Origin: Candidatus Woesearchaeota archaeon
GTDB taxonomy: Archaea; Nanobdellota; Nanobdellia; Woesearchaeales; JABGXB01
DNA: 64,000 bases
Reading direction: 5' to 3'
Assembly: GCA_018675975.1 (NCBI GenBank)
Contig: JABGXB010000003.1
Coordinates: forward strand, 203,821-267,820
Part shown: positions 5,505 through 49,558 of the stretch, one piece after another
Layout: each line of letters opens with the position of its first letter
How positions within the stretch are numbered: position 1 is the first letter of the stretch
Program-made: the position numbers and the translations under genes
The notes under the pieces: generated by a model
Seen by the model: the letters and a program-made list of their open reading frames with translations, nothing else
What the model was told of the DNA's origin: nothing
Databases searched by the model: none

Positions 5505-6875
5505 TTAATTTAATAAAAATGGTTCACCCATACATGGAATAATATAATCTTCATATCTCCAAAAATCCGTTTCTTTACAATTCCATTCTTCAATTAATTC
5601 AATACCATCTCTAATTTCATTATCATTAATATCATTTGCATAATTTTGTGCTCTATTATTTTCAAAAGTTGGATTTCCACCTAATATAAAAAATGAAAAA
5701 TGTGAATCTTTAACTTCATTATTAATTAATTTAGAATTTCCTTTAATATCAAAACCCTCATGCCCACAATCTTTTGCAATATTATTTCTATATACACCAT
5801 TAGAATTAGCAATTGAAAAACAACCCCAAAAACCATGTCTTACTATTGAATTTTCAACAATTATATTTTCACTAGGATCAACAACCACTAAACAAGCTTG
5901 ACAATATTCAATTATTACATTATTAAAATATGCATCATCAGTATTTACTACTAATGATGACCAATCATTATAATATTTATCTTCTACATTTGATGTAAAC
6001 AAAATCGGATTATCTTTAGTCCCATTTGCATTAATTTTCCCATTAAAAAAAACAGATATATGTTTGTCAGTATATGGTTTTAATCTAGATGAATCTAAAT
6101 CATTAAATCCATCTGGACCTAATTCAATATGATGAATTGATGGAGTTTTATCTTTTGATTTAGTAAATTCAATACGTGTACCAGGAAGAATATTAATCTC
6201 CACCCATGGCATCATCATTAAATCTCCTTCAATTAAAATATTACCACTCCAAATTTGAGAAGAAAAAATTTCCCCACTCAATATCCTATCATAATCTTCT
6301 CTTTGTAAATTAATATAAGTATTTTCATCTATATTTTTTTTTATATCATAATCAATTTCAACTAAGTTATTTAATTCTTCATTATCTTCGATATCATCTT
6401 GATCTTCATCATTACTTTCTTCTTCATCTTCTTCAATATTATTTTCTTCTTCTTCTATGTCATCTTGATCTTCAGTATTAGTTTCTTCTTCAGCTTCTTC
6501 AGTATCGTTTTCTTCTTCGTTTATATCATCTTCTTCATCTATATCTTCTTGATCATCAGTATTAGTTTCTTCTTCAGCTTCTTCAGTATCATTTCCTTTT
6601 TCTATATCATCTTGATCTTCATCATTACTTTCTTCTTCATCTTCTTCAGTATCATTTTCTGTTTTCTTTTCTATTTCATTTAACTTAGAACTTCCGTTTA
6701 ATAATTTATCATTTAAATTAGCTTTATCATTATTTAAAATTTCATCACTTGAAACATTATTAATATTAAATTTATTTTCTTTATTATTATCAACATCTTT
6801 AAATAAAAATATTAAAAATATAGCTATAAATAAAAAAACAAATATAAATAATATTAATTCAAATTTATTCTTCAT
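5505..6875 (-). CDS. Secreted protein with a tandem-repeated poly-acidic region and a C-terminal right-handed parallel beta-helix domain
   Basis: Signal anchor (LILFIFVFLFIAIFLIFLF). Imperfect repeats of EEEESNDEDQDDIE and NDTEEAEEETNTDDQEDIDEE. The C-terminal ~250 aa show repeated short beta-helix rungs (NVIIEYCQACLVVVD, NSIVRHGFWG, NNIAKDCGHEGFDIKGNS, NNEVKD). Confidence 0.6.
   Translation of the reverse strand: MKNKFELILFIFVFLFIAIFLIFLFKDVDNNKENKFNINNVSSDEILNNDKANLNDKLLNGSSKLNEIEKKTENDTEEDEEESNDEDQDDIEKGNDTEEAEEETNTDDQEDIDEEDDINEEENDTEEAEEETNTEDQDDIEEEENNIEEDEEESNDEDQDDIEDNEELNNLVEIDYDIKKNIDENTYINLQREDYDRILSGEIFSSQIWSGNILIEGDLMMMPWVEINILPGTRIEFTKSKDKTPSIHHIELGPDGFNDLDSSRLKPYTDKHISVFFNGKINANGTKDNPILFTSNVEDKYYNDWSSLVVNTDDAYFNNVIIEYCQACLVVVDPSENIIVENSIVRHGFWGCFSIANSNGVYRNNIAKDCGHEGFDIKGNSKLINNEVKDSHFSFFILGGNPTFENNRAQNYANDINDNEIRDGIELIEEWNCKETDFWRYEDYIIPCMGEPFLLN
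6390..6680. repeat. Imperfect tandem DNA repeats encoding the poly-acidic segment of the 5505..6875 protein
   Basis: A block tcttgatcttcatcattactttcttcttcatcttcttca recurs at about 6395 and 6606. Related tcttcagcttcttcagtatc units recur between them. Confidence 0.5.
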
Positions 6876-6918
6876 ATAAAAAATATAATTTTTAAATTAA
6901 TAAAATATTCTAAAAAAA

Positions 6919-7668
6919 TTAATTAGCATCAACTCTTGGTGCTAAAATAAAAGACAATAATAATCTATCTACAACTTTAAAATCAGCTTGCATTGGATAA
7001 TCAGCTTTTAATTTTAAATTAACAGTTCCACTAAGTTTTGATCCTTTTACAATTTTTTTTAAGTATTCTATAGAAAATTTACTTTTCAATGTAATACCTT
7101 CATCAACTGCAATCTCAACTAAATCTCCACTTTCAAAATCACTATTAGAATCACTTAAATCACCTGTTGCACTAGCAACAAATTTTTCATTATTAACTAT
7201 AAAACATAAACTTTCTGCAACAATTTCGGCATCTTCTACAATTTCAGTAAAAGTTTCACTACTCATTTTTATCGATGCATCAAAACTTAAATCAGGAACT
7301 TTCTGTTCTTTTTCATCTAAATCAATTATTGGAAGTGTAAATGTTCTCTTTGATTTTGATTTAAATTCAATAATTAATTTATTTGTATTTTCTTCTAATG
7401 TTAGACTAACAATATCAGTAGGTTTTGCTCTTTTCAAAATTTGTCTTAAATTCCCTAAATTAATTGCCATTTCAATTGGCTCATTTATTTCAAATACAGA
7501 AAAAGCTGATGATAGTAATTTAAAATTTACTAAAGCTACACTTGCTGGATCCATTGCAATTAATTCCATTGCATTTTCATTGATTCTAAATTTACCTTCA
7601 TTTACTAATTCAGAAATTATACTTATACCTTCTTTTAAATATTTTGACTCAGCTAATGTTAACTTCAT
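6919..7668 (-). CDS. pcn: DNA polymerase sliding clamp PCNA
   Basis: 249 aa. N-terminus MKLTLAESKYLKEGISIISELVNEGKF...AMDPASVALV and the overall length are typical of archaeal PCNA. A PIP-interacting loop region is present. Confidence 0.85.
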   Translation of the reverse strand: MKLTLAESKYLKEGISIISELVNEGKFRINENAMELIAMDPASVALVNFKLLSSAFSVFEINEPIEMAINLGNLRQILKRAKPTDIVSLTLEENTNKLIIEFKSKSKRTFTLPIIDLDEKEQKVPDLSFDASIKMSSETFTEIVEDAEIVAESLCFIVNNEKFVASATGDLSDSNSDFESGDLVEIAVDEGITLKSKFSIEYLKKIVKGSKLSGTVNLKLKADYPMQADFKVVDRLLLSFILAPRVDAN

Positions 7669-7783
7669 AATTTAACCTCTTTGGTATTGATTAAGTCGAT
7701 TTATTTATTAAGATTATGGTTTAAACATAGACACACAAATAAGTATTACAATATATAGAATAAACAATGATTAAAAATTAAAA

Positions 7784-9103
7784 TTATTCAAATATGTGTT
7801 CTTTACCAATTTCTAGAATAATTGAATTATTATAATTAATAGATTTTGCAATTTTTGCCACCTCTTGCTCAAATGGTTTATCTGCTGCTGAAGGAAAAAT
7901 AAATTCTGGTTTTGTAACTTCAATTAATTTTTTAATTTCATCATGGCTCGCATGACCAGAAGCATGTATATCTTTTAATATATTTACTTTTTTTTGTGCC
8001 AATTTACTTTCCAATATTTTTCTATTTTGTACACTCACAGGATTAGGAATAACTGTACATGAAAATATAATCCAATCATCATTTTTTAATGGATAATCTA
8101 ATATACCATCAACTATTTTACATAAATTTGCAGTTGGTTCACCTTGATGACCAGTTGTTACAATTATATATTTTTTAGGATTTTCTGAAACCATTTTTAA
8201 AATTCTTCTAATTTTATTTGGAAATTGTGCAATATTTTGCTTTGGTGCAATTTTTGTTAATTTTATATCATGTGCTGCATAAATATATTTGGCTAAACTC
8301 CTACCAAGAAAAACTGCTTCCCTTCCAACTCGTTTTGCAACATCTTTAATGGTTTTTAATCTTTGTAATTGTGATGAAAATGTTAAAATAAAAATAGATC
8401 TAGCATCATTATTTATTTTTTCAACTTCATTAAAAAGCATTTCACGAACTTCTACTTCTGTTTTTGTTGTTCCAGGAAAAACAGCCCTCGTACTATCAAC
8501 TATAATTGCTTTAAATGGACTCAACTCCTCTAATCTTTTAATATTACTTTTTGGACCAATAACAGGAGCATCATCAAATTTGTAATCATTTGTATATAAA
8601 AATCTCCCTTCTTTAGTTTCAACACAAATCATAACTGTATGTGGAATAGAATGAGTTACATAAATAAATTCAATTGTTATATCTTTATTAATTTTAAATC
8701 TACTATTACAATCTTGTGTAATAATAGTTGGAATTTCTTTATTTTCTTGTCTAAACATATTTAAAATAAATTGTGTTGTATATGGACTTGCATATACTTT
8801 TGCATTAGGAAAAAATTTAATTAAATATGGAGCTGCAAAAACATGATCAAAATGTGCATGAGATGGAATAATTGCAATTACATCATTAAATCTTTCTTTA
8901 AATAAAAAAACATCAGGAACTGCACCAACTTCAATTAATTCTTCTACTGTTGGAGCCAAACCTTCATGATCTTCCATAAAAGTAATATAATTATCTAAAT
9001 GAATCCCAATATCTAAAAGAATAATTTTTCCATTAACTTCAATATAGGTCATATTTTTTCCAAACTCACCATAACCACCAATAGCTTTAATTTTAAGAAC
9101 CAT
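7784..9103 (-). CDS. rnj: RNase J-like beta-CASP metallo-beta-lactamase ribonuclease
   Basis: HAHFDH (HxHxDH) motif, N-terminus MVLKIKAIGGYGEFGKNMTYIEV typical of RNase J, and beta-CASP motifs further down. The track ORF (to 9202) runs through tRNA-Cys, so I place the start at the internal Met at 9103. Confidence 0.75.
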   Translation of the reverse strand: MVLKIKAIGGYGEFGKNMTYIEVNGKIILLDIGIHLDNYITFMEDHEGLAPTVEELIEVGAVPDVFLFKERFNDVIAIIPSHAHFDHVFAAPYLIKFFPNAKVYASPYTTQFILNMFRQENKEIPTIITQDCNSRFKINKDITIEFIYVTHSIPHTVMICVETKEGRFLYTNDYKFDDAPVIGPKSNIKRLEELSPFKAIIVDSTRAVFPGTTKTEVEVREMLFNEVEKINNDARSIFILTFSSQLQRLKTIKDVAKRVGREAVFLGRSLAKYIYAAHDIKLTKIAPKQNIAQFPNKIRRILKMVSENPKKYIIVTTGHQGEPTANLCKIVDGILDYPLKNDDWIIFSCTVIPNPVSVQNRKILESKLAQKKVNILKDIHASGHASHDEIKKLIEVTKPEFIFPSAADKPFEQEVAKIAKSINYNNSIILEIGKEHIFE

Positions 9104-31364: not shown

Positions 31365-32222
31365 TTATATTTTTAATAAATCCCTATCAATCTTTGAAAA
31401 AGCAAATATTTTTTTACCTAAATCTTTTAGTGATGCTCCAATAAAATATAATTCTATATCATCAATAATTATAAATCTATCATGTGATTTATCAAATTTT
31501 GTTATTTTAAGTTTACCATATTGTTCATTGAATTTATTTTTAGCAAATTCTAATTGCTTTGAAATAGTTAAAGTTTTTATTTCAATACTAACTTTTTTAT
31601 TTTTTTCAGATAATATTGCTAAAGTATTTGTATCAACATAATTATCAATTAGAACAATTGACTTTTTTGCTTTTTTTATAATATTTATAATAAATTTATA
31701 AGCATCATAAATTTGACCATTATAAAAAATTCCTTGTTCCAAACTGATTGTTTTATCTTCAATTGCATTGAATATTTTATCAAATTTAATATCATGTTTT
31801 ATTTGTTTTTTCTCTAACAAATCCATTCTGTAAAATAAATGTTCATTTTTAAAAATAAATTTTCGCATTTTCACAAAAGCACGCATTATTTCAATATTTA
31901 CTATGACTGCAATATTTGATTTTAAAATACCAGAAATCATCGCAACACCTTGTTCTGTAAAAACTAAAGGTAAAAAACCACCCGTATATTTTTTTGAAGG
32001 TATCGCATTTTGCGATACCAAAAAATCTAATTCTTCTTTTGTTACTTGAAACATAAAGTCAGAAGGAAATCTACTTTTATTTCTCTTAACTTGTTCACGT
32101 AAACGAAAAGGTTTAATTTCATATAATTTTGCTAAATTTCTATCTAAAATAACATTAATACCTCTTAATTTAAAAATATTGGGTTTAATATCTTCTTCTG
32201 TTTTTAGCTCATATTTTTTCAT
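31365..32222 (-). CDS. ORF6N-domain (phage antirepressor/KilA-N-related DNA-binding) protein with a C-terminal uncharacterised domain
   Basis: N-terminal LRGINVILDRNLAKLYEIKPFRLREQVKRNKSRFPSDFMFQVTKEELDFL matches the ORF6N domain consensus. Confidence 0.55.
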   Translation of the reverse strand: MKKYELKTEEDIKPNIFKLRGINVILDRNLAKLYEIKPFRLREQVKRNKSRFPSDFMFQVTKEELDFLVSQNAIPSKKYTGGFLPLVFTEQGVAMISGILKSNIAVIVNIEIMRAFVKMRKFIFKNEHLFYRMDLLEKKQIKHDIKFDKIFNAIEDKTISLEQGIFYNGQIYDAYKFIINIIKKAKKSIVLIDNYVDTNTLAILSEKNKKVSIEIKTLTISKQLEFAKNKFNEQYGKLKITKFDKSHDRFIIIDDIELYFIGASLKDLGKKIFAFSKIDRDLLKI

Positions 32223-37591: not shown

Positions 37592-38793
37592 AATATAATG
37601 AATTAGTATATCAACCCCAAGAAGATACTCATTTACTATTAGATTCAATTATAAAAAATATTAAAAATCAAAAATTAAATATTCTTGAAATTGGTTGTGG
37701 ATCTGGTTATGTTTCTATTAATCTATTAAAAGAATATAATAATTTAAAAATAACTTGTACTGACATAAATAAAAATGCAATTAAACTTTCAAAAGAAAAT
37801 GCTAAAGAAAATAATATAAAAATTAAATTTATTGAAAGTAATTTGTTTGAAAATATAAAACAAGAATATGATATAATTATATTCAACCCACCTTATTTAC
37901 CACAAGATAAATTAAGTTCTAAACACAGTATTGATACTGCTCTATATGGAGGGAAAAAAGGTTATGAAATCACTCATCAATTTATTGAACAAGTATATAA
38001 TAATTTAAAACCAAATGGAAAAATATTTTTATTATTGTGTTCTTTATCAAAACCTAAAACATCACTTGAATTATTAAATAAATTCAATTATGAATATAAA
38101 TTAATAAAACAAATAAAAATATTTCCAGAAGAATTATTTGTATATGAAATAGAATTTAATGAATTTTTAAAAGAAATGAAAAATAAAAAAATAAAAACTA
38201 TTGAATTTATTTCTAAGGGAAAAAAAGGTAATATATATTCCGGAAATTTAAAAAATAAAAAAATAAAAATAAAACAATTAATTGAAAACAAAAATAATCA
38301 GAGCTTTGTTACAATACAAAATGAAGTTAATTTATTAAATAAATTAAAAAAACAGAGTTTTGTTCAAAAAATAATTGAAAATACAGATAATTATTTCATT
38401 TCCAGTTTTATAGAAGGAATAACATTTGAATCCTGGCTTGAAAAAAATAAATCCAAAAATAATTTTAAAAAAATAATTTTAAAAATATTAGAAATATGTC
38501 AAATATTAGACATACAAAAAATAGATAAAAAAGAAATGGTAAATCCATATAAACACATTTTAATCGATAAAAAAGAAAATGTATATTTTATTGATTTTGA
38601 AAGAAGTAGTATTTGTAAAAATCCCAAAAACATAACTCAAGTAATAAATTATTTTTGTTCTAAAAAAATAAATGATTATTTTAAAAAATTTAATATTAAT
38701 TTAAATATAAAAATATTAAATCAATTATGTAAAAAATATAAAAAAGATTATGATGAAAAAAAATTCAAAGATATAATTAATAATTTATTTTGA
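37588..38793 (+). CDS. Fusion of a HemK/Mtq2-type (NPPY) methyltransferase with a C-terminal Bud32/RIO/Kdo-kinase-like atypical protein kinase domain
   Basis: N-terminal LEIGCGSGYVS (motif I), IIIFNPPYLPQ (motif IV), ALYGGKKGYE. The C-terminal ~200 aa have a Gly-rich loop ISKGKKGNIYSG, KIKIKQL (VAIK-like Lys), a hinge SFIEGITF, HILIDKKEN (HxDxxxxN-like) and IDFERS (DFG-like). Confidence 0.55.
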   Translation: MKYNELVYQPQEDTHLLLDSIIKNIKNQKLNILEIGCGSGYVSINLLKEYNNLKITCTDINKNAIKLSKENAKENNIKIKFIESNLFENIKQEYDIIIFNPPYLPQDKLSSKHSIDTALYGGKKGYEITHQFIEQVYNNLKPNGKIFLLLCSLSKPKTSLELLNKFNYEYKLIKQIKIFPEELFVYEIEFNEFLKEMKNKKIKTIEFISKGKKGNIYSGNLKNKKIKIKQLIENKNNQSFVTIQNEVNLLNKLKKQSFVQKIIENTDNYFISSFIEGITFESWLEKNKSKNNFKKIILKILEICQILDIQKIDKKEMVNPYKHILIDKKENVYFIDFERSSICKNPKNITQVINYFCSKKINDYFKKFNINLNIKILNQLCKKYKKDYDEKKFKDIINNLF

Positions 38794-39147
38794 ATTATTT
38801 TTAAAAGAATGTAATTTTAAATATAAATTTAATAAATTATTATTTAATTCACCATATTTTTCAAATAATTCAGGATATTTTCTTGAAGAATCTACATAAT
38901 CATCAATTTGTTTAAATGTAAACCCAGATTTATAATAATCTTCATTAATTTGAGAATCGCATGAATTAATAATTTTATATAACTCAGGTTCTATTTTTTT
39001 TATAAAAAAATAAGTCCTTGTTAATTTTGATAAATCATCTTCAAAACTAATTTTACTATTTGAAATCGTTTCTAAATTTTTTTTTTGAAAAATTAAACCA
39101 TAAAAAAAATTAAGTACTGAATTTTTTGAAAATTTATCTATTGTCAC
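38785..39147 (-). CDS. Hypothetical protein (120 aa)
   Basis: No recognisable motif. Confidence 0.35.
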   Translation of the reverse strand: MTIDKFSKNSVLNFFYGLIFQKKNLETISNSKISFEDDLSKLTRTYFFIKKIEPELYKIINSCDSQINEDYYKSGFTFKQIDDYVDSSRKYPELFEKYGELNNNLLNLYLKLHSFKNNSK

Positions 39148-39466: not shown

Positions 39467-41116
39467 ATGGAAAAATTTCGAAAAGAAGATGTGAAAATAA
39501 TAGTTGTCACAGGAGGAGTTCTAAGTGGCCTTGGAAAAGGGGTTGTATGTTCTTCAATTATAAATTTAATAAAATATCAAGGTTATAATGCAACTGGAAT
39601 AAAAATTGATCCATATTTAAATGTAGATGCAGGTACAATGAGACCAACTGAACACGGTGAAGTTTTTGTAACTGATGATGGTGGTGAAACTGATCAAGAT
39701 TTAGGTAATTATGAAAGGTTTGGAGATATTAAATTATCAAAAAAAAATAGTATTACAACTGGACAAGTATTTTTATCTGTATTAAATAGAGAAAGAAATT
39801 TAGAATATGATGGGAAATGTGTAGAAGTAATACCACACATACCACAAGAAATTGAAGAAAGAATTTTTAAATCCATATTTGATAATAATTGTGAATTTGG
39901 AATTATTGAAGTTGGTGGAACTGTTGGTGATTATCAAAATATATTATTTTTAGAAGCATTAAAAGAAATTAAAAGAAAATATAATAATGTCGTTTTTACT
40001 CATGTAGGTTATTTGCCAATTTTAACTGGTGGAGAAATGAAAAGTAAACCATTACAACATAGTATTAGAATGTTAAATAGTGTAGGAATTCAACCCGATA
40101 TTATAATTGGACGAAGTGAAAATGAAATTGATGATGTTCGACGTGAAAAAATTGCAACACTTTGTTGTGTTAAAGAAGAAAATATAATTTCCGCACCAAA
40201 TGTAGATAATATTTACAAAGTTCCATTAATTTTTGACAAACAATTATTTATGCATCAAATATTTCAAAAATTTAATTTAATATATGATTCAACAAAAAAT
40301 TTAGAATGGAAAAAATTTATAGAACGAATTGGAAAAATAGAAAAAAAAATAAAAATTGGTATGATTGGAAAATATTTTGACATTGGAAGTTATTTTTTAT
40401 CAGATTCATATATATCAGTAATTGAAGCAATTAAACATGCAGGATATAATAATAATGTACATATTGAATTAACTTGGTTAAATTCAAAAGAATATGAACT
40501 AAATAAAGAAAAAATAAATGAATTATCTAAATATGATGCTATAATAATTCCCGGTGGATATGGGAGTAGTGGAGTTGAAGGTATAATTTCATCAATAAAA
40601 TTCATTCGTGAAAATAATATACCACTATTAGGATTATGTTATGGATTTCAATTAATGTGTATTGAATTTGCAAGAAATAAATGTAATTTACAAAATGCAC
40701 ATTCAACTGAAATTGATAATGAAACTGAAGATCCAATTATAGATTTACAAAAAGATCAAAAAGAAAATTTATTAAATAAAAATATGGGTGGAACAAATAG
40801 ACTAGGTGCATATTTTGCAAAATTAAAAAAAGATTCACAAGTTTATTCACTATATCATGAAGAAGTTATTAGTGAAAGACATAGACATAGATATGAAGTT
40901 AATTCACAATATATTAAAATATTAGAATCAAATGGTTTATGTTTTAGTGGAAAAAGTCCCGATGGTAATTTAATGGAATTTTTAGAATATGCAGATAATA
41001 ATTATTTTATAGGAACACAAGCACATCCAGAATTTAAAAGTAGACCATTAAAACCCAGCCCATTATTTGATGGATTAATTAAAGCTGCATTAAAAAGAAA
41101 ATCTACTTTAAATTAA
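39467..41116 (+). CDS. pyrG: CTP synthase
   Basis: N-terminus VTGGVLSGLGKG, synthetase-domain motifs, and a C-terminal class-I glutamine amidotransferase domain with GLCYGFQL (catalytic Cys) and the H...E region. Confidence 0.9.
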   Translation: MEKFRKEDVKIIVVTGGVLSGLGKGVVCSSIINLIKYQGYNATGIKIDPYLNVDAGTMRPTEHGEVFVTDDGGETDQDLGNYERFGDIKLSKKNSITTGQVFLSVLNRERNLEYDGKCVEVIPHIPQEIEERIFKSIFDNNCEFGIIEVGGTVGDYQNILFLEALKEIKRKYNNVVFTHVGYLPILTGGEMKSKPLQHSIRMLNSVGIQPDIIIGRSENEIDDVRREKIATLCCVKEENIISAPNVDNIYKVPLIFDKQLFMHQIFQKFNLIYDSTKNLEWKKFIERIGKIEKKIKIGMIGKYFDIGSYFLSDSYISVIEAIKHAGYNNNVHIELTWLNSKEYELNKEKINELSKYDAIIIPGGYGSSGVEGIISSIKFIRENNIPLLGLCYGFQLMCIEFARNKCNLQNAHSTEIDNETEDPIIDLQKDQKENLLNKNMGGTNRLGAYFAKLKKDSQVYSLYHEEVISERHRHRYEVNSQYIKILESNGLCFSGKSPDGNLMEFLEYADNNYFIGTQAHPEFKSRPLKPSPLFDGLIKAALKRKSTLN

Positions 41117-41690
41117 TATAAACATTATATTTTCTATTATCCTCAATAATTTTATTCCGATATAATGCAAATTCTAAAATAAAAAATTTATTATCTTGAC
41201 CACCAGTCAAACTATCAATATGTTTCTTAAAATCTTTCACATTATTAATAGCAAAAACAATATATCTTTTTTCCCTAAATTTTAAATCATTAATTTCAAT
41301 AATCTGTTTTTGTGTCCCAGTGGATGAAAACAAGGTTTGAAATTCCTCATTAAAAGTAGGAAAAGTTTCAGTAGGATTAGTACTATCTGCAGTTAATAAA
41401 GAGTAAATATTATTTAATTTTAATTCTAAATTAATATTTTCATTTTTTATTTGATTAACTATACCAAAATTAACTATAACTGGATCTGCTAAAGTAACTT
41501 CAAATCTATTTTGTTTAACTCCTAGAATTCCATCAAAATCAAAAGTCGTTTTTTCTCTAGAAATATCTATTGTTTTTTCCAATTGAAATATTTTTCCAAT
41601 AATAAAAAAACCAAAAACCATTATTGTAATCGATAAAATAATTACAACAATGGCATTCATTGATAATTCTATTGAACCTTTTCTTTTCAT
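41103..41690 (-). CDS. Pilin-like protein, paralog C (class III signal-peptide-like N-terminus)
   Basis: N-terminus MKRKGSIELSMNAIVVIILSITIMVFGFF has a basic tip, an early Glu and a long hydrophobic helix. It is nearly identical in pattern to 41996 and 42562, and the C-terminal domain is divergent. Confidence 0.45.
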   Translation of the reverse strand: MKRKGSIELSMNAIVVIILSITIMVFGFFIIGKIFQLEKTIDISREKTTFDFDGILGVKQNRFEVTLADPVIVNFGIVNQIKNENINLELKLNNIYSLLTADSTNPTETFPTFNEEFQTLFSSTGTQKQIIEINDLKFREKRYIVFAINNVKDFKKHIDSLTGGQDNKFFILEFALYRNKIIEDNRKYNVYINLK

Positions 41691-41950
41691 TTATTTACTA
41701 TAAATTCATATTCTTTGACTATTAAAACCATAAATAACAATAATATAATAGCACCAGATACAATAAATTTCATTCCAAGATTAAACCCTTGATAAGGATC
41801 TTGTAATGTTAAAAACAATCCATACGCCATTATAGCAAAACCAAACCATAAGAATTTATCTAATACTAATTTCATAATATCAAATTCTTCTTGTCTTGAT
41901 AATTGCTTTTTACTTGATTTAGGTCTTACTTTTCTTTTAACTTTTGCCAT
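41687..41950 (-). CDS. Small membrane protein inside the pilin-like operon
   Basis: 87 aa with a basic N-terminus and two TM helices. The gene overlaps its neighbour by 4 nt. Confidence 0.4.
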   Translation of the reverse strand: MAKVKRKVRPKSSKKQLSRQEEFDIMKLVLDKFLWFGFAIMAYGLFLTLQDPYQGFNLGMKFIVSGAIILLLFMVLIVKEYEFIVNK

Positions 41951-41995
41951 ATTTCACCTCTAATATAATATTAAAATAATAATAAAAAATTATAA

Positions 41996-42565
41996 TTACC
42001 TTTTAATTGTAATTTCTAACGGTACACTATTCTGTTTATCAGAAGATTTACAATTTCCTTCATCATCAGTTAAATCAGTAGGTTTAGTTGCACCAGCGAC
42101 AATACTTGCACAACAAACCTTAACAAACATAGATGGTTGTGGGCCCGTTTTATCATAATTTTCATTAACAGTCATAATAACTTTTGCTGCAATACCTTTT
42201 CCAAATGATAGTTTTTGTGGATCATTAACTAAAGTAAATATTAATTTATCACCAATTGTTTTATGTCCATCAACAGTAACCTGACAATATTCTTCATCAC
42301 GGGGATGAAAATAATTTATATCAAAAAACTCTTGACCTGATTTTTCAATTATAACACTTTTTGGTCTAACCTTTAAAGGGCTATCTTTTGTTGGTGGATC
42401 AATATCAGGAAAATCACTAACTATTGTAAGTAATTTAGTTTCTTGCTCTTGAAAAATAGTTTGCATAAAAACTAAAACTAATGATACAAAAACAACTGCA
42501 AGTATAATAATTACAATTGAATTCATGGACAATTCTAAACTTCCTTTTTTATTCATATAATTCAC
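41996..42565 (-). CDS. Pilin-like protein, paralog B
   Basis: N-terminus MNYMNKKGSLELSMNSIVIIILAVVFVSLVLVF. The C-terminal domain has a CC and an additional Cys (VKVCCASIV...GNC). Overlaps paralog A by 4 nt. Confidence 0.45.
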   Translation of the reverse strand: MNYMNKKGSLELSMNSIVIIILAVVFVSLVLVFMQTIFQEQETKLLTIVSDFPDIDPPTKDSPLKVRPKSVIIEKSGQEFFDINYFHPRDEEYCQVTVDGHKTIGDKLIFTLVNDPQKLSFGKGIAAKVIMTVNENYDKTGPQPSMFVKVCCASIVAGATKPTDLTDDEGNCKSSDKQNSVPLEITIKR

Positions 42566-43134
42566 CTCTTAACAACAAATGCCTTTTGAACACTTCTAAT
42601 AACATTATCCGAATCACAAACTAAACGATCAACTGACTCGCCTTTAATATTTGGAATTGATTTCGTTATTAAAGGAGTAGCACCAGTCTTACAACAAACT
42701 TCAATTTGATATACAGTTGTACCAACCGTTTGACCCATTGCAGTTATAGAAAATGCAACTTTTCCACCATCATCTAATTGAACTGTACTTGAAGGTAATA
42801 TAAATTTAACTTTAGTATCTGTAATAGTTGCTTCACTAATTGAAGCACCACATTCTTGTTTATCACCTAAATGTAAATATTCAACAGGAATTGTTCTAGC
42901 AGAACTTTCACCAATATTAATACTAACAGGATCTTCTGCTTGTACTTTTAAAGGATTCACACTTGTTGGCGGATTAACACTAGGAAATTGATCAATAACA
43001 TTTAAAACATTTTTTTGTTGTTCTCCAAAAACATTTTGAAAAAAAACTAATACTAATGATACGAAAACCACTGCTAATATAATAATTACAATGGAGTTCA
43101 TTGACATCTCCAATCCACCTTTTTTATTTTTCAT
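42562..43134 (-). CDS. Pilin-like protein, paralog A
   Basis: N-terminus MKNKKGGLEMSMNSIVIIILAVVFVSLVLVF. The C-terminal domain contains Cys (ECGAS...EVCCKTG...LVCDS). Confidence 0.45.
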   Translation of the reverse strand: MKNKKGGLEMSMNSIVIIILAVVFVSLVLVFFQNVFGEQQKNVLNVIDQFPSVNPPTSVNPLKVQAEDPVSINIGESSARTIPVEYLHLGDKQECGASISEATITDTKVKFILPSSTVQLDDGGKVAFSITAMGQTVGTTVYQIEVCCKTGATPLITKSIPNIKGESVDRLVCDSDNVIRSVQKAFVVKR

Positions 43135-43155
43135 TGTATTTCACCTATAACTATT

Positions 43156-44760
43156 TTAAAAATGTATTTTTCTTATATTTTTAACAGATACATCTAAAGA
43201 ATGAACTTTACTTCTAATAACAAGTTTATAATTACTTATTTCTTTTATTAAATGATCAATAACTTCTTTTTCACTAGCATCACTATTACCTTTAGCAGTT
43301 TCTAACATTTTTATCAATCGATCTGATAATTTAATAAAACTTTCTTTTAAATTTGCAATATCATGATATTCTTTATTTAAATAATTTACATCCTTAACAA
43401 TTAAATCAAAAAATTCAATTAAAGTTTTATCTTCATTAATAATTTCTTTTACAAGTAAATGTTTATCATTTTTACTTGCTATTACTTTTTCTTCACTATT
43501 TTTTAATGTACTTTCAATTTTTGTTAAATTAGATTCTATTAAATTTAATGAATTTTGATTAAAAGCTAAACGATTTGAATTAAAAACATCTATTTCTTTT
43601 TTAACATTTCCATATGAAGATTCAAAATTAGTTTTCAAAACATCATTTAAATGAGGATCATGTTCAACTAAAGCATCAAAAGAAAATTTAAGATCTTTAG
43701 CAGACTGATTAATAACATCTTTTAAATCATTATAATTTTCATAAATAAATTTAACTTCTTTTTTTAAACTTTCAACATAAGTAATAACTTTGTGCTCAAA
43801 TACTTTCTCAGTTTGAACCAATTCATTAATTTCTTCTTCACCTTTACTATTAATATTTTGTTCAATAGCAGTTTCAACATTAGAAGGTAAATTTCTCGGA
43901 AGTGGAATATTTAAACTACTCAAATCAAACGCCTTAGACGAATCGTGAATCATAACATTATTTTCTTCACTAGCAACTTTAGAACCACCAGTTTCTCCAA
44001 AACGCGTTTTCAATGTAGTTTCTGCATCTGTAATAAAATCTTTAAAATAAGAAGTACTCTGATTTTTCTTATTAGAAAAGAAAGTAAAAACTAAACCAAG
44101 GACTATAAAAGAAACAAATATATTAAATAATGTACCACTTGCCATATATTCAACTAAGGGATTTAATGTAAAATCTTTAATTTCTATTAAACTTTTTAAA
44201 AATTCAAACATAGTTGTAAAAATTAAATTACCTATAGCTAATGGACCAAATATATATAAAAAAAAATTTGAAATGTGATTTTCAGGATGTTTTTCTACTA
44301 AACTTGAACGTAAAGATTTTACCATACTAATAATCATAACTAAAACAACACCAAATAAAACAAAACTTAATGAACCTAATGAAAATTTAGTTAATGTACT
44401 TTCAATATCAATAATATTCGTTTTTCCAAGAATAAAAATTCCACCCACTAATAAAAAACTAAATGCTCCAATAAGAGCTTTTATTGATTTTATTTTTTCA
44501 GGATGATCAAAATGATGTAAAAATGTAATTTGTGCAATTAAGTATAAAACAAAATAAAAAAAAATTGATAATATAACAATAGTTAAACCAATCATAAGAC
44601 CAGGAATTGCTATTAAGGTTTCAATTACATCTCCAGAACCAGAAATAAAACTCATTAAAAAATCTGAAAAACCTTCTTCAGCTGCACTTACAAATGGCAT
44701 TAATGTAAATAAAAATAATGAACTTAAAAATAATGATAAACTAAACCTACCTCTTTTCAT
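43156..44760 (-). CDS. Signal-peptide polytopic membrane protein with a ~250 aa C-terminal coiled-coil domain (paralog 2)
   Basis: Signal peptide ...LMPFVSAAEEGFSDFLMSFISG, about 6-8 TM helices and a long K/E-rich helical cytoplasmic tail. It is a paralog of 44817. Confidence 0.5.
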   Translation of the reverse strand: MKRGRFSLSLFLSSLFLFTLMPFVSAAEEGFSDFLMSFISGSGDVIETLIAIPGLMIGLTIVILSIFFYFVLYLIAQITFLHHFDHPEKIKSIKALIGAFSFLLVGGIFILGKTNIIDIESTLTKFSLGSLSFVLFGVVLVMIISMVKSLRSSLVEKHPENHISNFFLYIFGPLAIGNLIFTTMFEFLKSLIEIKDFTLNPLVEYMASGTLFNIFVSFIVLGLVFTFFSNKKNQSTSYFKDFITDAETTLKTRFGETGGSKVASEENNVMIHDSSKAFDLSSLNIPLPRNLPSNVETAIEQNINSKGEEEINELVQTEKVFEHKVITYVESLKKEVKFIYENYNDLKDVINQSAKDLKFSFDALVEHDPHLNDVLKTNFESSYGNVKKEIDVFNSNRLAFNQNSLNLIESNLTKIESTLKNSEEKVIASKNDKHLLVKEIINEDKTLIEFFDLIVKDVNYLNKEYHDIANLKESFIKLSDRLIKMLETAKGNSDASEKEVIDHLIKEISNYKLVIRSKVHSLDVSVKNIRKIHF

Positions 44761-44816
44761 ATTATATTTTTAGATTATTTCCTTTATAAAATTACCCCTT
44801 AGAATCAGTTAAAAAA

Positions 44817-46187
44817 TTATAATTTACGAGGTAATTCCATGTGTCCTAATTGTACAATTTTTCTTTTAAGCATTTTTATTTTTGGTGCAATAAGTTTAGC
44901 TAAACTACTTTTATTTTTATCACATAAAGTAATAGAATCCTCAGAGATTGAAGGATCAATACAATAAATTTCTAAATTTTCTAAATGATGAACTAAAGAA
45001 TTTAAATCTGAAATAAATTTATGTTCATGATTTGCAATTTCTCTATAATCATGTATTTCATTATTTAAAAATTTATTAAAAATTTTATTACAAACGTCTT
45101 TTAAATTTTCATCAACACCAGAATCTAATAAATGATCTTCACTAATAATTGTTTTTTTTAAATTAGATGCTAATTTTTTTTCAATTGAATTTAAAAAATC
45201 AAAATATTTTTTAGAACTTGATCGTAAGTTATGAATTACTGAAGTCAAACCATCAATTGTATTATTAAAACTCACTTCACTAGAATGACTACCTGTTAAA
45301 GTTATATTATGAAGCTTTGATAAACCCATCATATGTTCTTGAAATTCATCCGCAATACTTTTTTTATCACGAATTAATTCATTAATTTTACTAGAAATTT
45401 CATTTTCATGTTTTTTTAAATTACCAACAGCTTGTTTTGGAGGAATATTTGAAAAACCATCCATGTAATTATAATTCAAATTACTTGAAGTCTTACCAAA
45501 CCAAACAACAATTAATGTAATTACTATAATAATTAAAGGTAAATAAAAAAAGAAACTTTGATTTAATACATAACTAATAATAAGTCCCCCAAATTCATCA
45601 CCACCAGATGTAATCACACCATCTTCAATACTGACATTTGCAATTAAACTAATTACTCCCATTAAAAGTGATTTAAATACAACATATAATGTAATTACTG
45701 CCATTGAAATTGAAAGCACATAATATTCACCAGCTGAATGAGTTAAATTATCTCTAAAAAAATCTCTTAATTTTGTATAAACATCATATGAAAATAATAC
45801 ACATAAAAATAATAAAACATATGAAATAGTAAAAAATGAAAAATTAGTAAAAGCTTTTTCAACATCTGCAACATTATCTCTACCAATTACCATAAAAGTT
45901 AAAACCAAAATTACACTCAATGCAGTTAATAATTTATTAACTGTATTTTCATGAGAACTATAAAAATTAGAATTAACTGAACTGACTATTAAAAGTAATG
46001 CTTTGTATAAAAATATAGTAAATACAATAATTAAAATAAATATAATAAAACCATCAGTTGATAAAAATTGAGTAAAACTTGTATTAAAACCAGTCAAAAA
46101 CTCAGAAATAAATGTTGTAAAATCACCTTCCGTAGCACTAACAAATGGAATAAATGTAAATAGCATTAATAATAATTTTTTAAACAT
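44817..46187 (-). CDS. Signal-peptide polytopic membrane protein with a C-terminal coiled-coil domain (paralog 1)
   Basis: Signal peptide ...FIPFVSATEGDFTTFISEFLTG, multiple TM helices and a helical C-terminal tail. First gene of the minus-strand operon. Confidence 0.5.
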   Translation of the reverse strand: MFKKLLLMLFTFIPFVSATEGDFTTFISEFLTGFNTSFTQFLSTDGFIIFILIIVFTIFLYKALLLIVSSVNSNFYSSHENTVNKLLTALSVILVLTFMVIGRDNVADVEKAFTNFSFFTISYVLLFLCVLFSYDVYTKLRDFFRDNLTHSAGEYYVLSISMAVITLYVVFKSLLMGVISLIANVSIEDGVITSGGDEFGGLIISYVLNQSFFFYLPLIIIVITLIVVWFGKTSSNLNYNYMDGFSNIPPKQAVGNLKKHENEISSKINELIRDKKSIADEFQEHMMGLSKLHNITLTGSHSSEVSFNNTIDGLTSVIHNLRSSSKKYFDFLNSIEKKLASNLKKTIISEDHLLDSGVDENLKDVCNKIFNKFLNNEIHDYREIANHEHKFISDLNSLVHHLENLEIYCIDPSISEDSITLCDKNKSSLAKLIAPKIKMLKRKIVQLGHMELPRKL

Positions 46188-46315
46188 AAATAAAATTGAG
46201 TTTTATCATTTATAAAAACTTCTTTTTTTAAAAGATAGTCAAAAAGAACAAAATAACTCAATATTCGCAAACAAAGACTAAAAACAACTCAAAAACAGAT
46301 ATTTATTTAAAAGAA

Positions 46316-47980
46316 ATGTTTATAAAAAAAGAATGTTACCACTTTTTAATTACGATGAAATTAAAAGATAAAATATTAGAATATAGCACAAGAGCTTCAA
46401 AATTTTTAAATAGTTCAAAAAAAGCATTAGTTTTAACACTAGGACTTTTAGCTAATAATTCAAATACATTTTCAATTTATCACCCAGAAGGACCTAGAGA
46501 ATCATATGTAAAAAATTTTAGCATTGAAAATATCAAAGATATGCGAGAACAATATGAAAAAATTAGACAAAAAATAAAAAATTCTGAAAATAAATATGAC
46601 TTTGAAAATGTTATCACAAATACATATGATAAAATAAAAAATCAAAATATTGATCCAAGACAAGCTTTAGAACAAACATTAGAAGAATTTGAAAGTGATG
46701 AATTAATTGGAAATAGTTTAACAGGATTTCGAAAAAAACAAAGTTTATTTTTTAAAGATGGTTTCAAAGTAAATGATTATTTAAAAGTTGTTGAAACAGC
46801 ATATAAATTAATTCCAGTTTTTGCAGAATCATTAGAATTATATTTAGATGATTTAAATAAACAAGATCAAGATAATTCAAATGTAAAAGTTTCAGAAAAT
46901 CACATAAATGAATTTTACAATGGAATTATGAATTCATTATATTCTTCATTTGGAACAAAAGAAGATAATATGTTTGGAAGCAATACATATAATTTTGTAA
47001 CAGGTCATGTAAAAGATTTTTACAAAGAACCAGTATTTAAATTTTCAAATTTAAAATTTGAAGACATTGAAGAAAAGTCAGATAAATCTGGTGAAAGTTT
47101 TCTTATGGCTCATATAATTCAAGAATTAACTGACATAGTTTATGGAGAATCAATTAAACTTGTTTATGAAAATGAAAAAGATAAATTAAAAGAATTAGCA
47201 AATCGACAAAAAGATTATGGTTTTAAAGAATTAAGTTCAATATTACCAAAAGAAGAAGTTATTCAATTCGTAAAAATAACTCCAGTTCAAAGTAGTCAAT
47301 CAGTTAAAGTTAGTCCAGTAAATACACAAGTTCAAGAAGATGTAAGTTATTTATTAGGAAATCCACAAAACCCAGTTAATCAATTTATTCCACAATCAAA
47401 TTCAAATGCTTTAATATTAACAGAATTAAAAGAAATCAAAGACACTGTTAAAACTTTAGAATATACAACAATTCAAAATCAAGATATGATTCAAAATAAT
47501 TTAAAACTAATTAATCAAAATCAAGGTGCAATGATATTAAGTGGAGAACTTACTGCAGAAAATACAAGGGGAATTCAAACAGTTCAAGCAGCAGCAGTAG
47601 TGAGTGGAGAAGTTATTGCAGAAAATACAAGAGGGCTTGAAACAGTTCAAGGAGTAGTTATTCAAAGCGGTCAAAGGCCTAAAAAAACCAAACCTAAAAC
47701 ACATATACCAATTGAAGTTCCACCAAAAAGAAAATCAAGAAGAAATTCAAGAAGAAATACATGTATATATCCAGAAAAATTTATTAATCATCCAAAAAAA
47801 AAACAAATTTTAGAAATTATGAAAGATGACTATAATTTGGGTAATAAAAGAGGAGATATTTTAAGAAAAGATTTTCAATTTCCAGATGGTTATTTAGATG
47901 CATATAAAATGATTTGTGACAAACCAAAACCTAGTTTAGTTCAAGCCAAATCATTTCTTTATAATTTATCAAAAAAATAA
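46316..47980 (+). CDS. Hypothetical secreted protein with an internal ~21-aa duplicated motif and a basic C-terminal region
   Basis: Signal-like segment KKALVLTLGLLANNSNT, the repeat SGELTAENTRGIQTVQ / SGEVIAENTRGLETVQ, and a K/R-rich segment PKKTKPKTHIPIEVPPKRKSRRNSRRN. Confidence 0.45.
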   Translation: MFIKKECYHFLITMKLKDKILEYSTRASKFLNSSKKALVLTLGLLANNSNTFSIYHPEGPRESYVKNFSIENIKDMREQYEKIRQKIKNSENKYDFENVITNTYDKIKNQNIDPRQALEQTLEEFESDELIGNSLTGFRKKQSLFFKDGFKVNDYLKVVETAYKLIPVFAESLELYLDDLNKQDQDNSNVKVSENHINEFYNGIMNSLYSSFGTKEDNMFGSNTYNFVTGHVKDFYKEPVFKFSNLKFEDIEEKSDKSGESFLMAHIIQELTDIVYGESIKLVYENEKDKLKELANRQKDYGFKELSSILPKEEVIQFVKITPVQSSQSVKVSPVNTQVQEDVSYLLGNPQNPVNQFIPQSNSNALILTELKEIKDTVKTLEYTTIQNQDMIQNNLKLINQNQGAMILSGELTAENTRGIQTVQAAAVVSGEVIAENTRGLETVQGVVIQSGQRPKKTKPKTHIPIEVPPKRKSRRNSRRNTCIYPEKFINHPKKKQILEIMKDDYNLGNKRGDILRKDFQFPDGYLDAYKMICDKPKPSLVQAKSFLYNLSKK

Positions 47981-47989
47981 AAATGAAAA

Positions 47990-49558
47990 ATGTTAAAATA
48001 TATTATTCCACTAATAGCGACGGCAAATATACATTTTTCTTATGCTAATTTTTTTAAACCAATTCAAAATTATAAAGAACAAAGAGTAAATTATTCTGAC
48101 CCTAGTTTTAAACATACAAGTTTTAATTATCAAAATATTCTAAATTATTTGAAAAACTCAAAATCAAAATTATCAAGAACATTTAAACAAAATAAACAAC
48201 AATTAAAACAAATATATTTAGATAAATTATTTGATCAAGATGGAAATTTAGAAAATCGATTTAATAATAATAATCCAGAATTTGAATTTAATCAATTTAG
48301 AAAAGAAATTCCAACATTAATTTTTTTAAATGAATTTAATGACTTTAATCAATTAACTAGAACTATTAATAATAGACAATTATTAAGAAATAAATTAATT
48401 CAAGCCTATGAGCAATTTGAAGATAAATTAAAACAAGCAGAACAAACATATACATCACCTAGAGCAATGAATGTATATGAAACAAGATTACAAAATGCTT
48501 TAGAAGTATTAGCAGCTACAAAAACATATTCTGAAGCAAATCAAAATCAAATAAGAAGTTTAATTAAAATTAATTCAGGAGATCAAAATGATTTTGATAA
48601 ATTAAGTTTTATTATACAGTATGGAATTAAACCATTAGGTCATAGATTAGCAAAGTTTAATGATTTACAATTAACAAGATTAATGTTATATATACCAGGA
48701 TTACAAATTGCTGAAAGTGGTTTAGAAACTGATAACAATAATAGAGTTATTAATAGAGTTGACAATGATGGAGGTATTGGTGGATTAAGCGTTTATCAAA
48801 CACCTAATATCGCGAGATTTGGTTATGATAGAACAACTCAAGAATTTGCAACAGAAGTATTATCAGATAAAAAAATAAATGGAAAAACCTACAGAAAAAT
48901 AATTGAATCATTTAAACAAGGTAAAACAGCATTTGTACCTATTTCTCAAGTAGTTAACGGTGGAAGAGATTTAGCAACCTTAGAACAAAAATTATTAATG
49001 GGTGAAATTCAAACGGAAAATAAATCACATTTTTTTTCTGCAAAATCATTTTATCAAAATATAAAAGACAAATCAATTTTTAAAAAAGCAAAAAAGAAAT
49101 TTGAAGAATTAGTTAAAGATAAATACAGATTCAAAGGTCTTGAACAATTATTAAATAGAGATTTAAAATCATTAGCAGATAGTCGAAGATTAGAACATGA
49201 ACAAGAAAATCCAACGGCCTCAGCAAATATAAGTACTTTTATTACAACAGATTCAATTATAAGAGAAAGTAAAATTAATGATAATCCATTAAATATTTAT
49301 TTATCATGGAATTTAGGAGTATCAAGCGCAGAAAGATTAAATGCTTATGTAAATGCATTTAAACATTATGTTAAAGGAAAAATATCTAAACAGCAATTAA
49401 AAAAAAAATATGATCGAGTTAATGGAGTAAAACAAATAAAAATAATTGGAAATCCTAAGTCTAGAGTTAATAGCGTAATCCGAAATTATGGCTTAAGATT
49501 ATTTCATTTAATGGATACTTATATTTATAATTTAAAAATAAGAAAAAATAAAAATTAA
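47990..49558 (+). CDS. Hypothetical secreted protein (522 aa)
   Basis: N-terminal signal peptide MLKYIIPLIATANIHFSYA. Polar N/K/Q-rich sequence with no enzymatic motif. Confidence 0.45.
   Translation: MLKYIIPLIATANIHFSYANFFKPIQNYKEQRVNYSDPSFKHTSFNYQNILNYLKNSKSKLSRTFKQNKQQLKQIYLDKLFDQDGNLENRFNNNNPEFEFNQFRKEIPTLIFLNEFNDFNQLTRTINNRQLLRNKLIQAYEQFEDKLKQAEQTYTSPRAMNVYETRLQNALEVLAATKTYSEANQNQIRSLIKINSGDQNDFDKLSFIIQYGIKPLGHRLAKFNDLQLTRLMLYIPGLQIAESGLETDNNNRVINRVDNDGGIGGLSVYQTPNIARFGYDRTTQEFATEVLSDKKINGKTYRKIIESFKQGKTAFVPISQVVNGGRDLATLEQKLLMGEIQTENKSHFFSAKSFYQNIKDKSIFKKAKKKFEELVKDKYRFKGLEQLLNRDLKSLADSRRLEHEQENPTASANISTFITTDSIIRESKINDNPLNIYLSWNLGVSSAERLNAYVNAFKHYVKGKISKQQLKKKYDRVNGVKQIKIIGNPKSRVNSVIRNYGLRLFHLMDTYIYNLKIRKNKN

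Follow-up and report, generated by a model that had tools for sequence, protein, structure and literature searches.

Does a row of six adjacent genes in the genome of a Woesearchaeote encode a single surface apparatus, and if not, which of its genes belong together? The row lies on the minus strand at 41103-46187 of a 64-kb stretch of Candidatus Woesearchaeota archaeon contig JABGXB010000003.1 (the whole 64,000-nucleotide stretch is hereafter the window), which has a GC content of about 23% and encodes the archaeal/eukaryotic-type ribosomal proteins L15e and L35Ae. The list of open reading frames (ORFs) of the window has six ORFs in a row there, as an earlier annotation made from the letters alone (the first-pass annotation) had stated, and one of the encoded proteins is the NCBI entry HOK68_02770, a "hypothetical protein". 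That annotation had read three proteins of ~190 amino acids (aa) as type IV pilin-like and had joined them with two large membrane proteins in a candidate apparatus of an undescribed type. Our analysis keeps the first half of this proposal and gives up the second. The three ~190-aa proteins are, we think probably, class III signal-peptide proteins of the type IV pilin-like kind, processed by an A24 peptidase, served by machinery encoded elsewhere and accompanied by a small partner protein having two transmembrane (TM) helices.

Three paralogous proteins with a pilin-like N-terminus and a predicted helix plus Ig-like fold

Translation of the window in six frames gave three copies, and no more, of the motif [KR]-K-G-[SG]-[LI]-E-[LM]-S-M-N-[SA]-I-V-[IV]-I-I-L, one at the N-terminus of each ~190-aa ORF, and the near-identical N-termini first noticed in these proteins are thus borne out by a motif scan that places all three at ORF starts. 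The basic leaders end in KKG, KKG and RKG, and the hydropathy profile showed a hydrophobic stretch of ~25 residues directly after the leader. In pilin-like protein 1 (for brevity pilin 1, and likewise pilins 2 and 3) the leader MKNKKG is followed by GLEMSMNSIVIIILAVVFVSLVLVFF and then by an immunoglobulin (Ig)-like beta-sandwich bearing cysteine. Its AlphaFold2 model, obtained with 26 homologues at a predicted local distance difference test score (pLDDT) of 83.7, comprises a helix at residues 7-49 and then an all-beta sandwich of 11 strands. Pilins 1 and 2 are 39% identical over their full length, and a 185-nucleotide (nt) DNA repeat of 73% identity joins the 5' parts of their genes; pilin 3 is 25% identical to pilin 1, mainly in the N-terminal part. 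The globular domains had been described as cysteine-containing in all three proteins, which holds for two of them but not for pilin 3, which has no cysteine.

A homologue search with the single sequence of pilin 1 returned the protein itself only, and single-sequence searches with the cluster proteins gave matches confined to the same strain. A profile search with the three paralogues found ~30 proteins of 150-220 aa with the same N-terminus, i.e., a short basic leader, K-K-G/A, one or two residues, and then [E/N/S/Q]-L-S-x-N-x-I-V-I-I-I-L-A. Hidden Markov models (HMMs) for testing the window pilins were built from relatives alone, the window sequences being left out, and these matched all three proteins at E values of 7e-23 to 3e-11 (pilin 1, 6e-20; pilin 2, 7e-23; pilin 3, 2e-14). 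Together, the basic leader, the hydrophobic helix, the predicted helix plus Ig-like fold, the tandem paralogues and the A24 peptidase neighbours described below support the type IV pilin-like reading of the small proteins, and on sequence evidence the pilin-like family is an unannotated one that is widespread in Woesearchaeota.

The public gene call of pilin 1 (P0001, 181 aa) starts at an internal methionine (MSMNSIV...) and loses the MKNKKGGLE leader, and a class III signal would therefore be hidden from automated predictors. Elsewhere in the window, at 467-1426 on the plus strand, a 319-aa protein starts with MDKGLLAVVTILMVIFAAALGYAL, with K-G directly before the hydrophobic stretch, and has a coiled-coil-like C-terminus with weak EzrA-type matches; it could be another class III-like or signal-anchored protein. 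In a marine relative (locus L007, 3541-3978, minus strand) a 145-aa protein starts with MKRAQAAMEFLMTYGWAILVVLVAIGVL, a different and more classical archaeal pilin-type N-terminus, which indicates that at least two pilin classes coexist in the lineage.

A small two-helix protein accompanies the pilin-like genes in relatives

The cluster also encodes an 87-aa protein, passed over in the first-pass annotation, having a basic N-terminus, the near-invariant EEF[DE]IMKLVLDKFLW, two hydrophobic helices and the end IVKEYE, and it carries the conserved EEFEIMKLVLDKF/TM1 segment (TM1 being the first helix). No Pfam model matched this protein, and its profile gave nothing significant against PDB sequences. 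A scan of GTDB species genomes found relatives of it in 443 species, and the best 80 of the 443 were labelled Woesearchaeota, Nanoarchaeota or Nanoarchaeia, or were binned under evidently wrong names. The consensus is MKKRLTqqEEFEIMKLVLDKFLWLGFgIMAYGLY…GL.wivAGAIVLiLFMvlIVKEYEIIK, and the identity of ~50-65% across Woesearchaeota is a conservation far above that of the pilins. The amphipathic stretch that precedes TM1 and the KEYE at the C-terminus are invariant and predicted to be cytoplasmic, and the short external loop is variable.

Synteny was analyzed in a sample of 83 loci, in which ORFs were called and all neighbours within 7 kb were clustered; the window's own species was not among the GTDB loci returned. 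The pilin-like family was present in 80 of the 83 loci with 164 genes, and its copy number varies from 1 to 4. A same-strand pilin-like gene immediately preceded the small gene in 76/83 loci (median gap 12 nt), and one immediately followed it in 47/83 (median gap 35 nt). In the long relatives L005 and L009, for example, a 72-75-aa protein ~60% identical to the 87-aa protein adjoins pilin-like genes. The small protein is thus the key conserved element beside the pilin genes, and the two large proteins are not; conservation of the cluster in relatives holds for the pilin-like genes with the small gene but fails for the two large genes.

Other genes were observed around this cassette in relatives. 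In 21 loci the pilin/small-gene cassette is often followed by a gene for a Cys-rich protein of ~470 aa with a lipoprotein-like signal (…LLSGCSKPECK…), as in L005 (11460-12863) and L009 (5680-7113), which is absent from the window and may be an adhesin; further pilin-like genes with the leader KKGMELQI(N/S)F come after it. Just upstream of the pilin cluster of L005, a Woesearchaeote, is a gene (6439-8769) whose 776-aa product combines PG_binding_1 with SLT (lytic transglycosylase) domains; it is a murein-degrading enzyme encoded by an archaeon and may be aimed at bacterial hosts. In L009 an inserted ORF6N/Bro-N-type gene (4091-4945) interrupts the pilin cluster and separates the small gene from the pilin gene that follows.

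Leader composition and a neighbouring prepilin peptidase gene

The leaders of the family are strongly constrained before the putative cleavage site. For genes directly upstream of the small gene, position -1 was G/A in 69/71, position -2 was K/R in 66/71 and position -3 was K/R in 69/71; the corresponding counts for the downstream genes were 38/39, 38/39 and 35/39. Most upstream-gene leaders are 4-15 residues long. This pattern fits the one established for PibD/FlaK substrates. Pilin 3, whose nearest homologue is P0007, was also considered as a member of a distinct downstream subtype, which was dropped because all three window pilins score better with the upstream HMM.

In 7 loci a Peptidase_A24 gene was located on the same strand 1.2-2.4 kb upstream. 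These neighbour peptidases match PF01478 (Peptidase_A24) with E values of 4e-13 and 9e-16, and their cluster has the motifs D-L-(K/R)-x-R-E-V-P-D-W and W-G-G-G-D-S-K-L-L. In 5 loci the order is peptidase, pilin-like gene and small gene with nothing between, sometimes with a second pilin-like gene after them. Given that an A24 peptidase gene adjoins the pilin genes in relatives, the assignment of class III (prepilin) signal peptides is supported. In several of the loci L021, L035, L041, L044 and L062, the region upstream of the A24 peptidase gene holds two divergently oriented, conserved but uncharacterised genes; the product of the first is ~190 aa long and starts M..NDEYE(I/L)(L/M)PH(Q/K)LL.DLK, and that of the second, found in three of those loci, is ~280 aa long.

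Absence of nearby assembly genes and the possibility of an uncleaved signal anchor

The Pfam scan of the window covered 48 ORFs and returned housekeeping functions, with no secretion ATPase, platform, A24 peptidase or KaiC-like domain among them, and an A24 HMM made from the relatives found no peptidase in the window either, in agreement with the first-pass statement that the window holds no FlaI/PilB, prepilin peptidase or KaiC-like gene. No T2SSE-type Walker A motif was found in ORFs of more than 250 aa in the window or in the related loci, and no assembly ATPase or platform gene lay within 10 kb in any of the 83 loci. Makarova et al. state that most archaea have pilin genes outside type IV pilus operons, as singletons or in tandem, and that such stand-alone genes were found in two earlier studies to be major pilin families (PMC4858521). 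Since stand-alone pilin genes are usual in archaea (PMC4858521), an ATPase-free neighbourhood is no evidence against pilins. For Woesearchaeota, one study reports flaB/H/I/J/K in most of its metagenome-assembled genomes (PMC11606122), and a 2026 preprint reports type IV filament systems in DPANN archaea (10.64898/2026.04.22.720090).

Several results weigh against a pilin-like identity. None of the six cluster proteins was meaningfully matched by Pfam, NCBIfam or PHROGs, and no curated pilin or archaellin model of Pfam or NCBIfam matched the three proteins at E <= 1; a match to a curated pilin N-terminal model of the TIGR02537 type, to which the first-pass annotation had looked, was therefore not obtained (the models in question we take to be Pfam Pilin_N, Class_IIIsignal and TIGR02537). 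The pilin-family profile gave nothing significant against PDB sequences, and fold searches yielded nothing beyond generic Ig-like domains; none of their top matches was a solved archaeal pilin. The S/G-L-E-L-S-M-N that follows the putative cleavage site is more polar than in classical substrates, and the FlaFind pattern would reject S/G at +1 or E at +3. The early Glu predominates in the downstream subfamily (29/39) and is not conserved in the upstream one (N 25, E 22, S 17). No peptidase, ATPase or platform gene is present within the 64-kb window, a peptidase is nearby in just 7/83 related loci, and the case for the role of the small protein is one of synteny. Finally, a helix with an Ig-like domain equally fits an uncleaved signal-anchored surface protein.

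This last possibility is the main rival: the ~190-aa proteins would be uncleaved type II signal anchors with an Ig-like ectodomain, forming with the small protein a non-filamentous complex, e.g., in the envelope or in adhesion, and no pilus machinery would be involved. Such a complex would agree with the missing pilin HMM match, with the generic Ig-like fold matches, with the lack of an ATPase or platform gene around the 83 loci, and with the tight coupling to a small integral membrane protein, a feature that type IV pilus systems are not known to have. It sits poorly with the near-invariant [KR][KR][GA] before the helix, and with the strong conservation of the N-terminal 25 residues in proteins otherwise very divergent, both of them typical of pilins rather than of simple anchors; the A24 peptidase gene directly adjoining in several relatives and the tandem paralogous genes also argue against it. 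Overall, we regard the signal-anchor complex as unlikely and the pilin-like reading as the one to be preferred.

The two large membrane proteins are outside the conserved module

The 534- and 456-aa proteins had been described as paralogues with a common PFVSA(A/T)E motif, and BLASTP confirmed this with an E value of 2e-12 and 30% identity over ~137 aa, motif included, within the first ~140 residues. The 534-aa protein has a signal peptide ending …PFVSA before AEE, 5 TM helices and a helical, K/E/N-rich C-terminal tail of ~290 aa; in the 456-aa protein a signal peptide ending …PFVSA before TEG is followed by 5 TM helices and a helical tail of ~220 aa. Of the architecture first described, the signal peptide was recovered but not the 6-8 TM helices, since hydropathy and AlphaFold gave 5, and the tail is helical and K/E/N-rich but a true coiled coil was not borne out. 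According to the positive-inside rule, the tail is predicted to be cytoplasmic.

Searches with these proteins were almost empty. The 534-aa protein found itself only in a word-index search and had no match in Pfam, NCBIfam, PHROG or PDB. When the aligned TM domains of both proteins were used in an exhaustive HMMER search of 1.84 billion representative proteins, two proteins only were returned, one of 456 aa and one an 87-aa fragment, and both are taken to be this lineage's own. Neither Pfam nor NCBIfam showed any T2SSF-type (FlaJ/TadC) similarity. The AlphaFold model of the 534-aa protein is poor (pLDDT 50, with the TM part below 50 and the tail, with long helices, at 60-70), and Foldseek gave designed helical bundles and coiled coils only, at a best E value of 0.04. 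The structure search for VirB6/TrbL or TadB/C likeness that had been suggested thus brought no match, a weak test at pLDDT 50, and no verdict on VirB6 or TadC can be drawn from a model of that quality. The earlier remark that the architecture is unlike that of a FlaJ/TadC platform is in keeping with Pfam, PDB sequence and fold searches that showed no similarity, the last with this poor model. None of the 80 related pilin/small-gene loci encoded the large proteins, so that the module of pilin genes, as conserved, works without them; as judged by these searches, the large proteins are lineage-specific orphan membrane proteins outside that module.

These data bear directly on the proposal that the six genes are a self-contained, undescribed filament or transfer apparatus in which the large proteins replace FlaJ/TadC or VirB6 as platform or channel. 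In its favour, the genes adjoin one another, a common transcript of the 534-aa gene and the pilins is probable (see below), and the topology of the large proteins (N-out, 5 TM helices, C-in, long tail in the cytoplasm) is one we take to be VirB6-like; yet the large proteins lack homologues outside the lineage among the 1.84 billion representatives, are missing from the 80 related loci, show no Pfam, PDB or fold likeness to platform or channel families, and have no ATPase nearby. The idea of pilins and large proteins in one apparatus is accordingly not sustained, and we hold it to be very unlikely.

A further possibility is that the pilin-like proteins are divergent FlaF/FlaG-type archaellum accessories, with the small protein as an archaellum-associated membrane component. 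Their size and predicted architecture are comparable, and archaellum genes are reported in most Woesearchaeota metagenome-assembled genomes of one study (PMC11606122). Against this, archaeal flagellin-family Pfam models were unmatched, the genes were never beside flaH/I/J-type genes in the 83 loci, and the pilin-like genes come as 2-4 tandem paralogues whose ectodomains vary greatly; this reading appears highly improbable. A Ced/Ted- or VirB-like DNA transfer system, with the small protein (a two-helix hairpin of ~70 aa behind a basic N-terminus) as a pilin that we take to resemble VirB2/CedA1 and the large 5-TM proteins as VirB6/CedA-like components by a topology we likewise take to be similar, is scarcely credible and was rejected, since no VirB4/CedB/HerA-type ATPase was found in the window or related loci, the large proteins are not conserved, and the small protein is most conserved at its predicted cytoplasmic ends, unlike an exported pilus subunit.

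Gene layout and transcription signals

The coordinates of the cluster are given in Table 1. The genes had been described as tightly packed with 4-nt overlaps; one such overlap, between the start of pilin 3 and the stop of the small gene (41687-41690), is present with ATG starts, but a second would need a GTG start. The true start of the pilin 2 gene is taken to be the ATG at 42556 because of a GAGGTGA ribosome-binding site and the N-termini of homologues. Just 21 nt separate the 534-aa gene from that of pilin 1, and no RNA genes or notable repeats were found across the cluster region.

Table 1. Positions and supporting evidence for the genes and promoter-like elements of the cluster
Feature	Position in window	Strand	Evidence or remark
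Pilin-like protein 3, 195 aa, start MKRKGSIELSMNAIVVIILSITIMVFGFF...	41103..41690	-	Motif, HMM of relatives
Small two-TM membrane protein, 87 aa	41687..41950	-	Relatives, synteny
Pilin-like protein 2, 186 aa, start MNKKGSLELSMNSIV...	41996..42556	-	Tandem duplicate of protein 1
Pilin-like protein 1, 190 aa	42562..43134	-	ORF, N-terminal motif, HMM of relatives
Lineage-specific membrane protein, 534 aa	43156..44760	-	Hydropathy, AlphaFold, null searches
TATA-like box TTTATAAA, starting 30 nt before the ATG of the 534-aa gene	44783..44790	-	
456-aa paralogue of the 534-aa protein	44817..46187	-	BLASTP, hydropathy
TATA-like box TTTATAAA, starting 29 nt before the ATG of the 456-aa gene	46209..46216	-	

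Thirteen window ORFs, against ~1.6 expected, have the palindromic octamer TTTATAAA starting 29-32 nt ahead of their ATG, at positions that include 11538, 23630, 39438 and the two boxes in Table 1. This spacing suggests a TATA box at a fixed position and mostly leaderless or short-leader mRNAs in this genome. Both large genes carry the box, and the genes of pilin 1, pilin 2 and the small protein do not. The sequence AGGTGA was found 9-12 nt before an ATG at three window sites only, ahead of exactly these three genes: 12 nt before the ATG of pilin 1, as GAGGTGA (42562-42568) 11 nt before that of pilin 2, and as GAGGTGA 9 nt before that of the small gene. In addition, the stop codon of the 456-aa gene is followed by a T-run. 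Based on the boxes, the AGGTGA sites, the pilin 3 overlap and the T-run, two transcription units are predicted: the 534-aa gene as first cistron, pilin 1, pilin 2, the small gene and pilin 3 probably form one polycistronic transcript, and the 456-aa gene is likely transcribed on its own.

Proposed mechanism and implications

The pathway proposed here starts from the computed sequence features, synteny and predicted fold and is extrapolated from established archaeal type IV pili; the cleavage, the assembly into a filament and the parts played by the small and large proteins belong to the proposal. The pilin-like proteins would enter the membrane such that their short basic leader stays in the cytoplasm, where an A24 aspartic prepilin peptidase of the PibD/FlaK type, encoded elsewhere in the genome, would cut after K-K-G/A to leave a mature protein consisting of the N-terminal hydrophobic helix and the Ig-like domain. 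A FlaI/PilB-type ATPase and a FlaJ/TadC-type platform, also encoded elsewhere, would then build a thin surface filament or a short pseudopilus, which could be used for attachment. The small protein would be an obligate, translationally coupled partner of the pilins. Its best-conserved regions are predicted to lie on the cytoplasmic side or at the membrane interface, and it might act as a membrane adaptor or anchor dedicated to the pilins, binding either their conserved leader and helix or the assembly machinery. A bolder version, which we put forward tentatively and as doubtful, holds that the pilin/small/pilin cassette is an undescribed lineage-wide Woesearchaeal module with the small protein as a new, dedicated component of a type IV filament system, and that in this species the co-transcribed orphan membrane protein, by its long cytoplasmic tail, links the structure with the inside of the cell for interaction with a host.

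A host-attached life is assumed for Woesearchaeota and other DPANN archaea, yet little is known of the structures by which they attach, and most of their surface genes carry the annotation "hypothetical". The pilin-like family with its small partner, in more than 400 species, is a testable candidate for a Woesearchaeal attachment filament, and the small protein may be a novel accessory of type IV filament systems in archaea. Telling the conserved core apart from species-specific orphans also spares the pursuit of an apparatus that is not conserved.

Neighbouring genes

Beside the cluster, two divergently placed orphan proteins of 554 and 522 aa are encoded on the plus strand at 46316-47980 and 47990-49558; neither had a match in Pfam, NCBIfam or PHROG, and the gene of the former holds a tandem 63-nt (21-aa) repeat at 47521-47646. 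Together with the two large membrane protein genes they make an orphan-gene block of ~6.4 kb (43156-49558) that separates the pilin genes from those for ribosomal proteins. A mobile-element or viral origin of this block was considered and set aside, given that PHROG support was absent and the region showed no RNA genes or notable repeats. Proteins with ORF6N and Bro-N domains, which are typical of mobile elements and viruses, are encoded elsewhere in the window at 31365-32222, and a 120-aa ORF at 38785-39147 (minus strand) had a weak, sub-threshold match (E 0.003) to the D-63 family of Sulfolobus spindle-shaped virus SSV1.

Comparison with known systems

The large proteins resemble VirB6/TrbL and archaeal CedA in topology only (~5 TM helices behind a signal peptide or N-out start, with a C-terminal extension in the cytoplasm), and differ from them in having no detected sequence or fold similarity, no partner ATPase and no homologues outside the lineage. 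The pilin-like proteins share with the archaellum proteins FlaF/FlaG a length of ~150-190 aa and an N-terminal membrane helix followed by a beta-sandwich; FlaF and FlaG occur as a pair. The window genes differ in that they lie outside a fla operon, show no sequence match to them, and belong to a family with 1 to 4 copies and variable, sometimes Cys-rich, ectodomains. Prepilin-type leaders on proteins that do not necessarily form long pili are also a property of the pseudopilins and class III substrate-binding proteins of the Sulfolobus bindosome (Bas). The Bas cluster holds its own ATPase and platform genes, however, and the window proteins have no substrate-binding domain.

Stand-alone archaeal type IV pilins include PilA1-6 of Haloferax volcanii, EpdE/MMP1685 of Methanococcus maripaludis, and the Aap and Ups pilins of Sulfolobus. 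Like these, the Woesearchaeal proteins have a short basic leader ending in K/R-G/A, an N-terminal hydrophobic helix of ~20-25 residues and an Ig-like beta domain, are encoded as tandem paralogues away from an ATPase/platform operon, and in some relatives have an A24 peptidase gene adjacent to them. In contrast to these pilins, the window proteins match no Pfam or NCBIfam model, the Woesearchaeal family is paired with a highly conserved small two-TM protein that no described archaeal type IV filament system is known to contain, and its mature part opens with the distinctive polar S/A-L-[ENS]-L-S-x-N.

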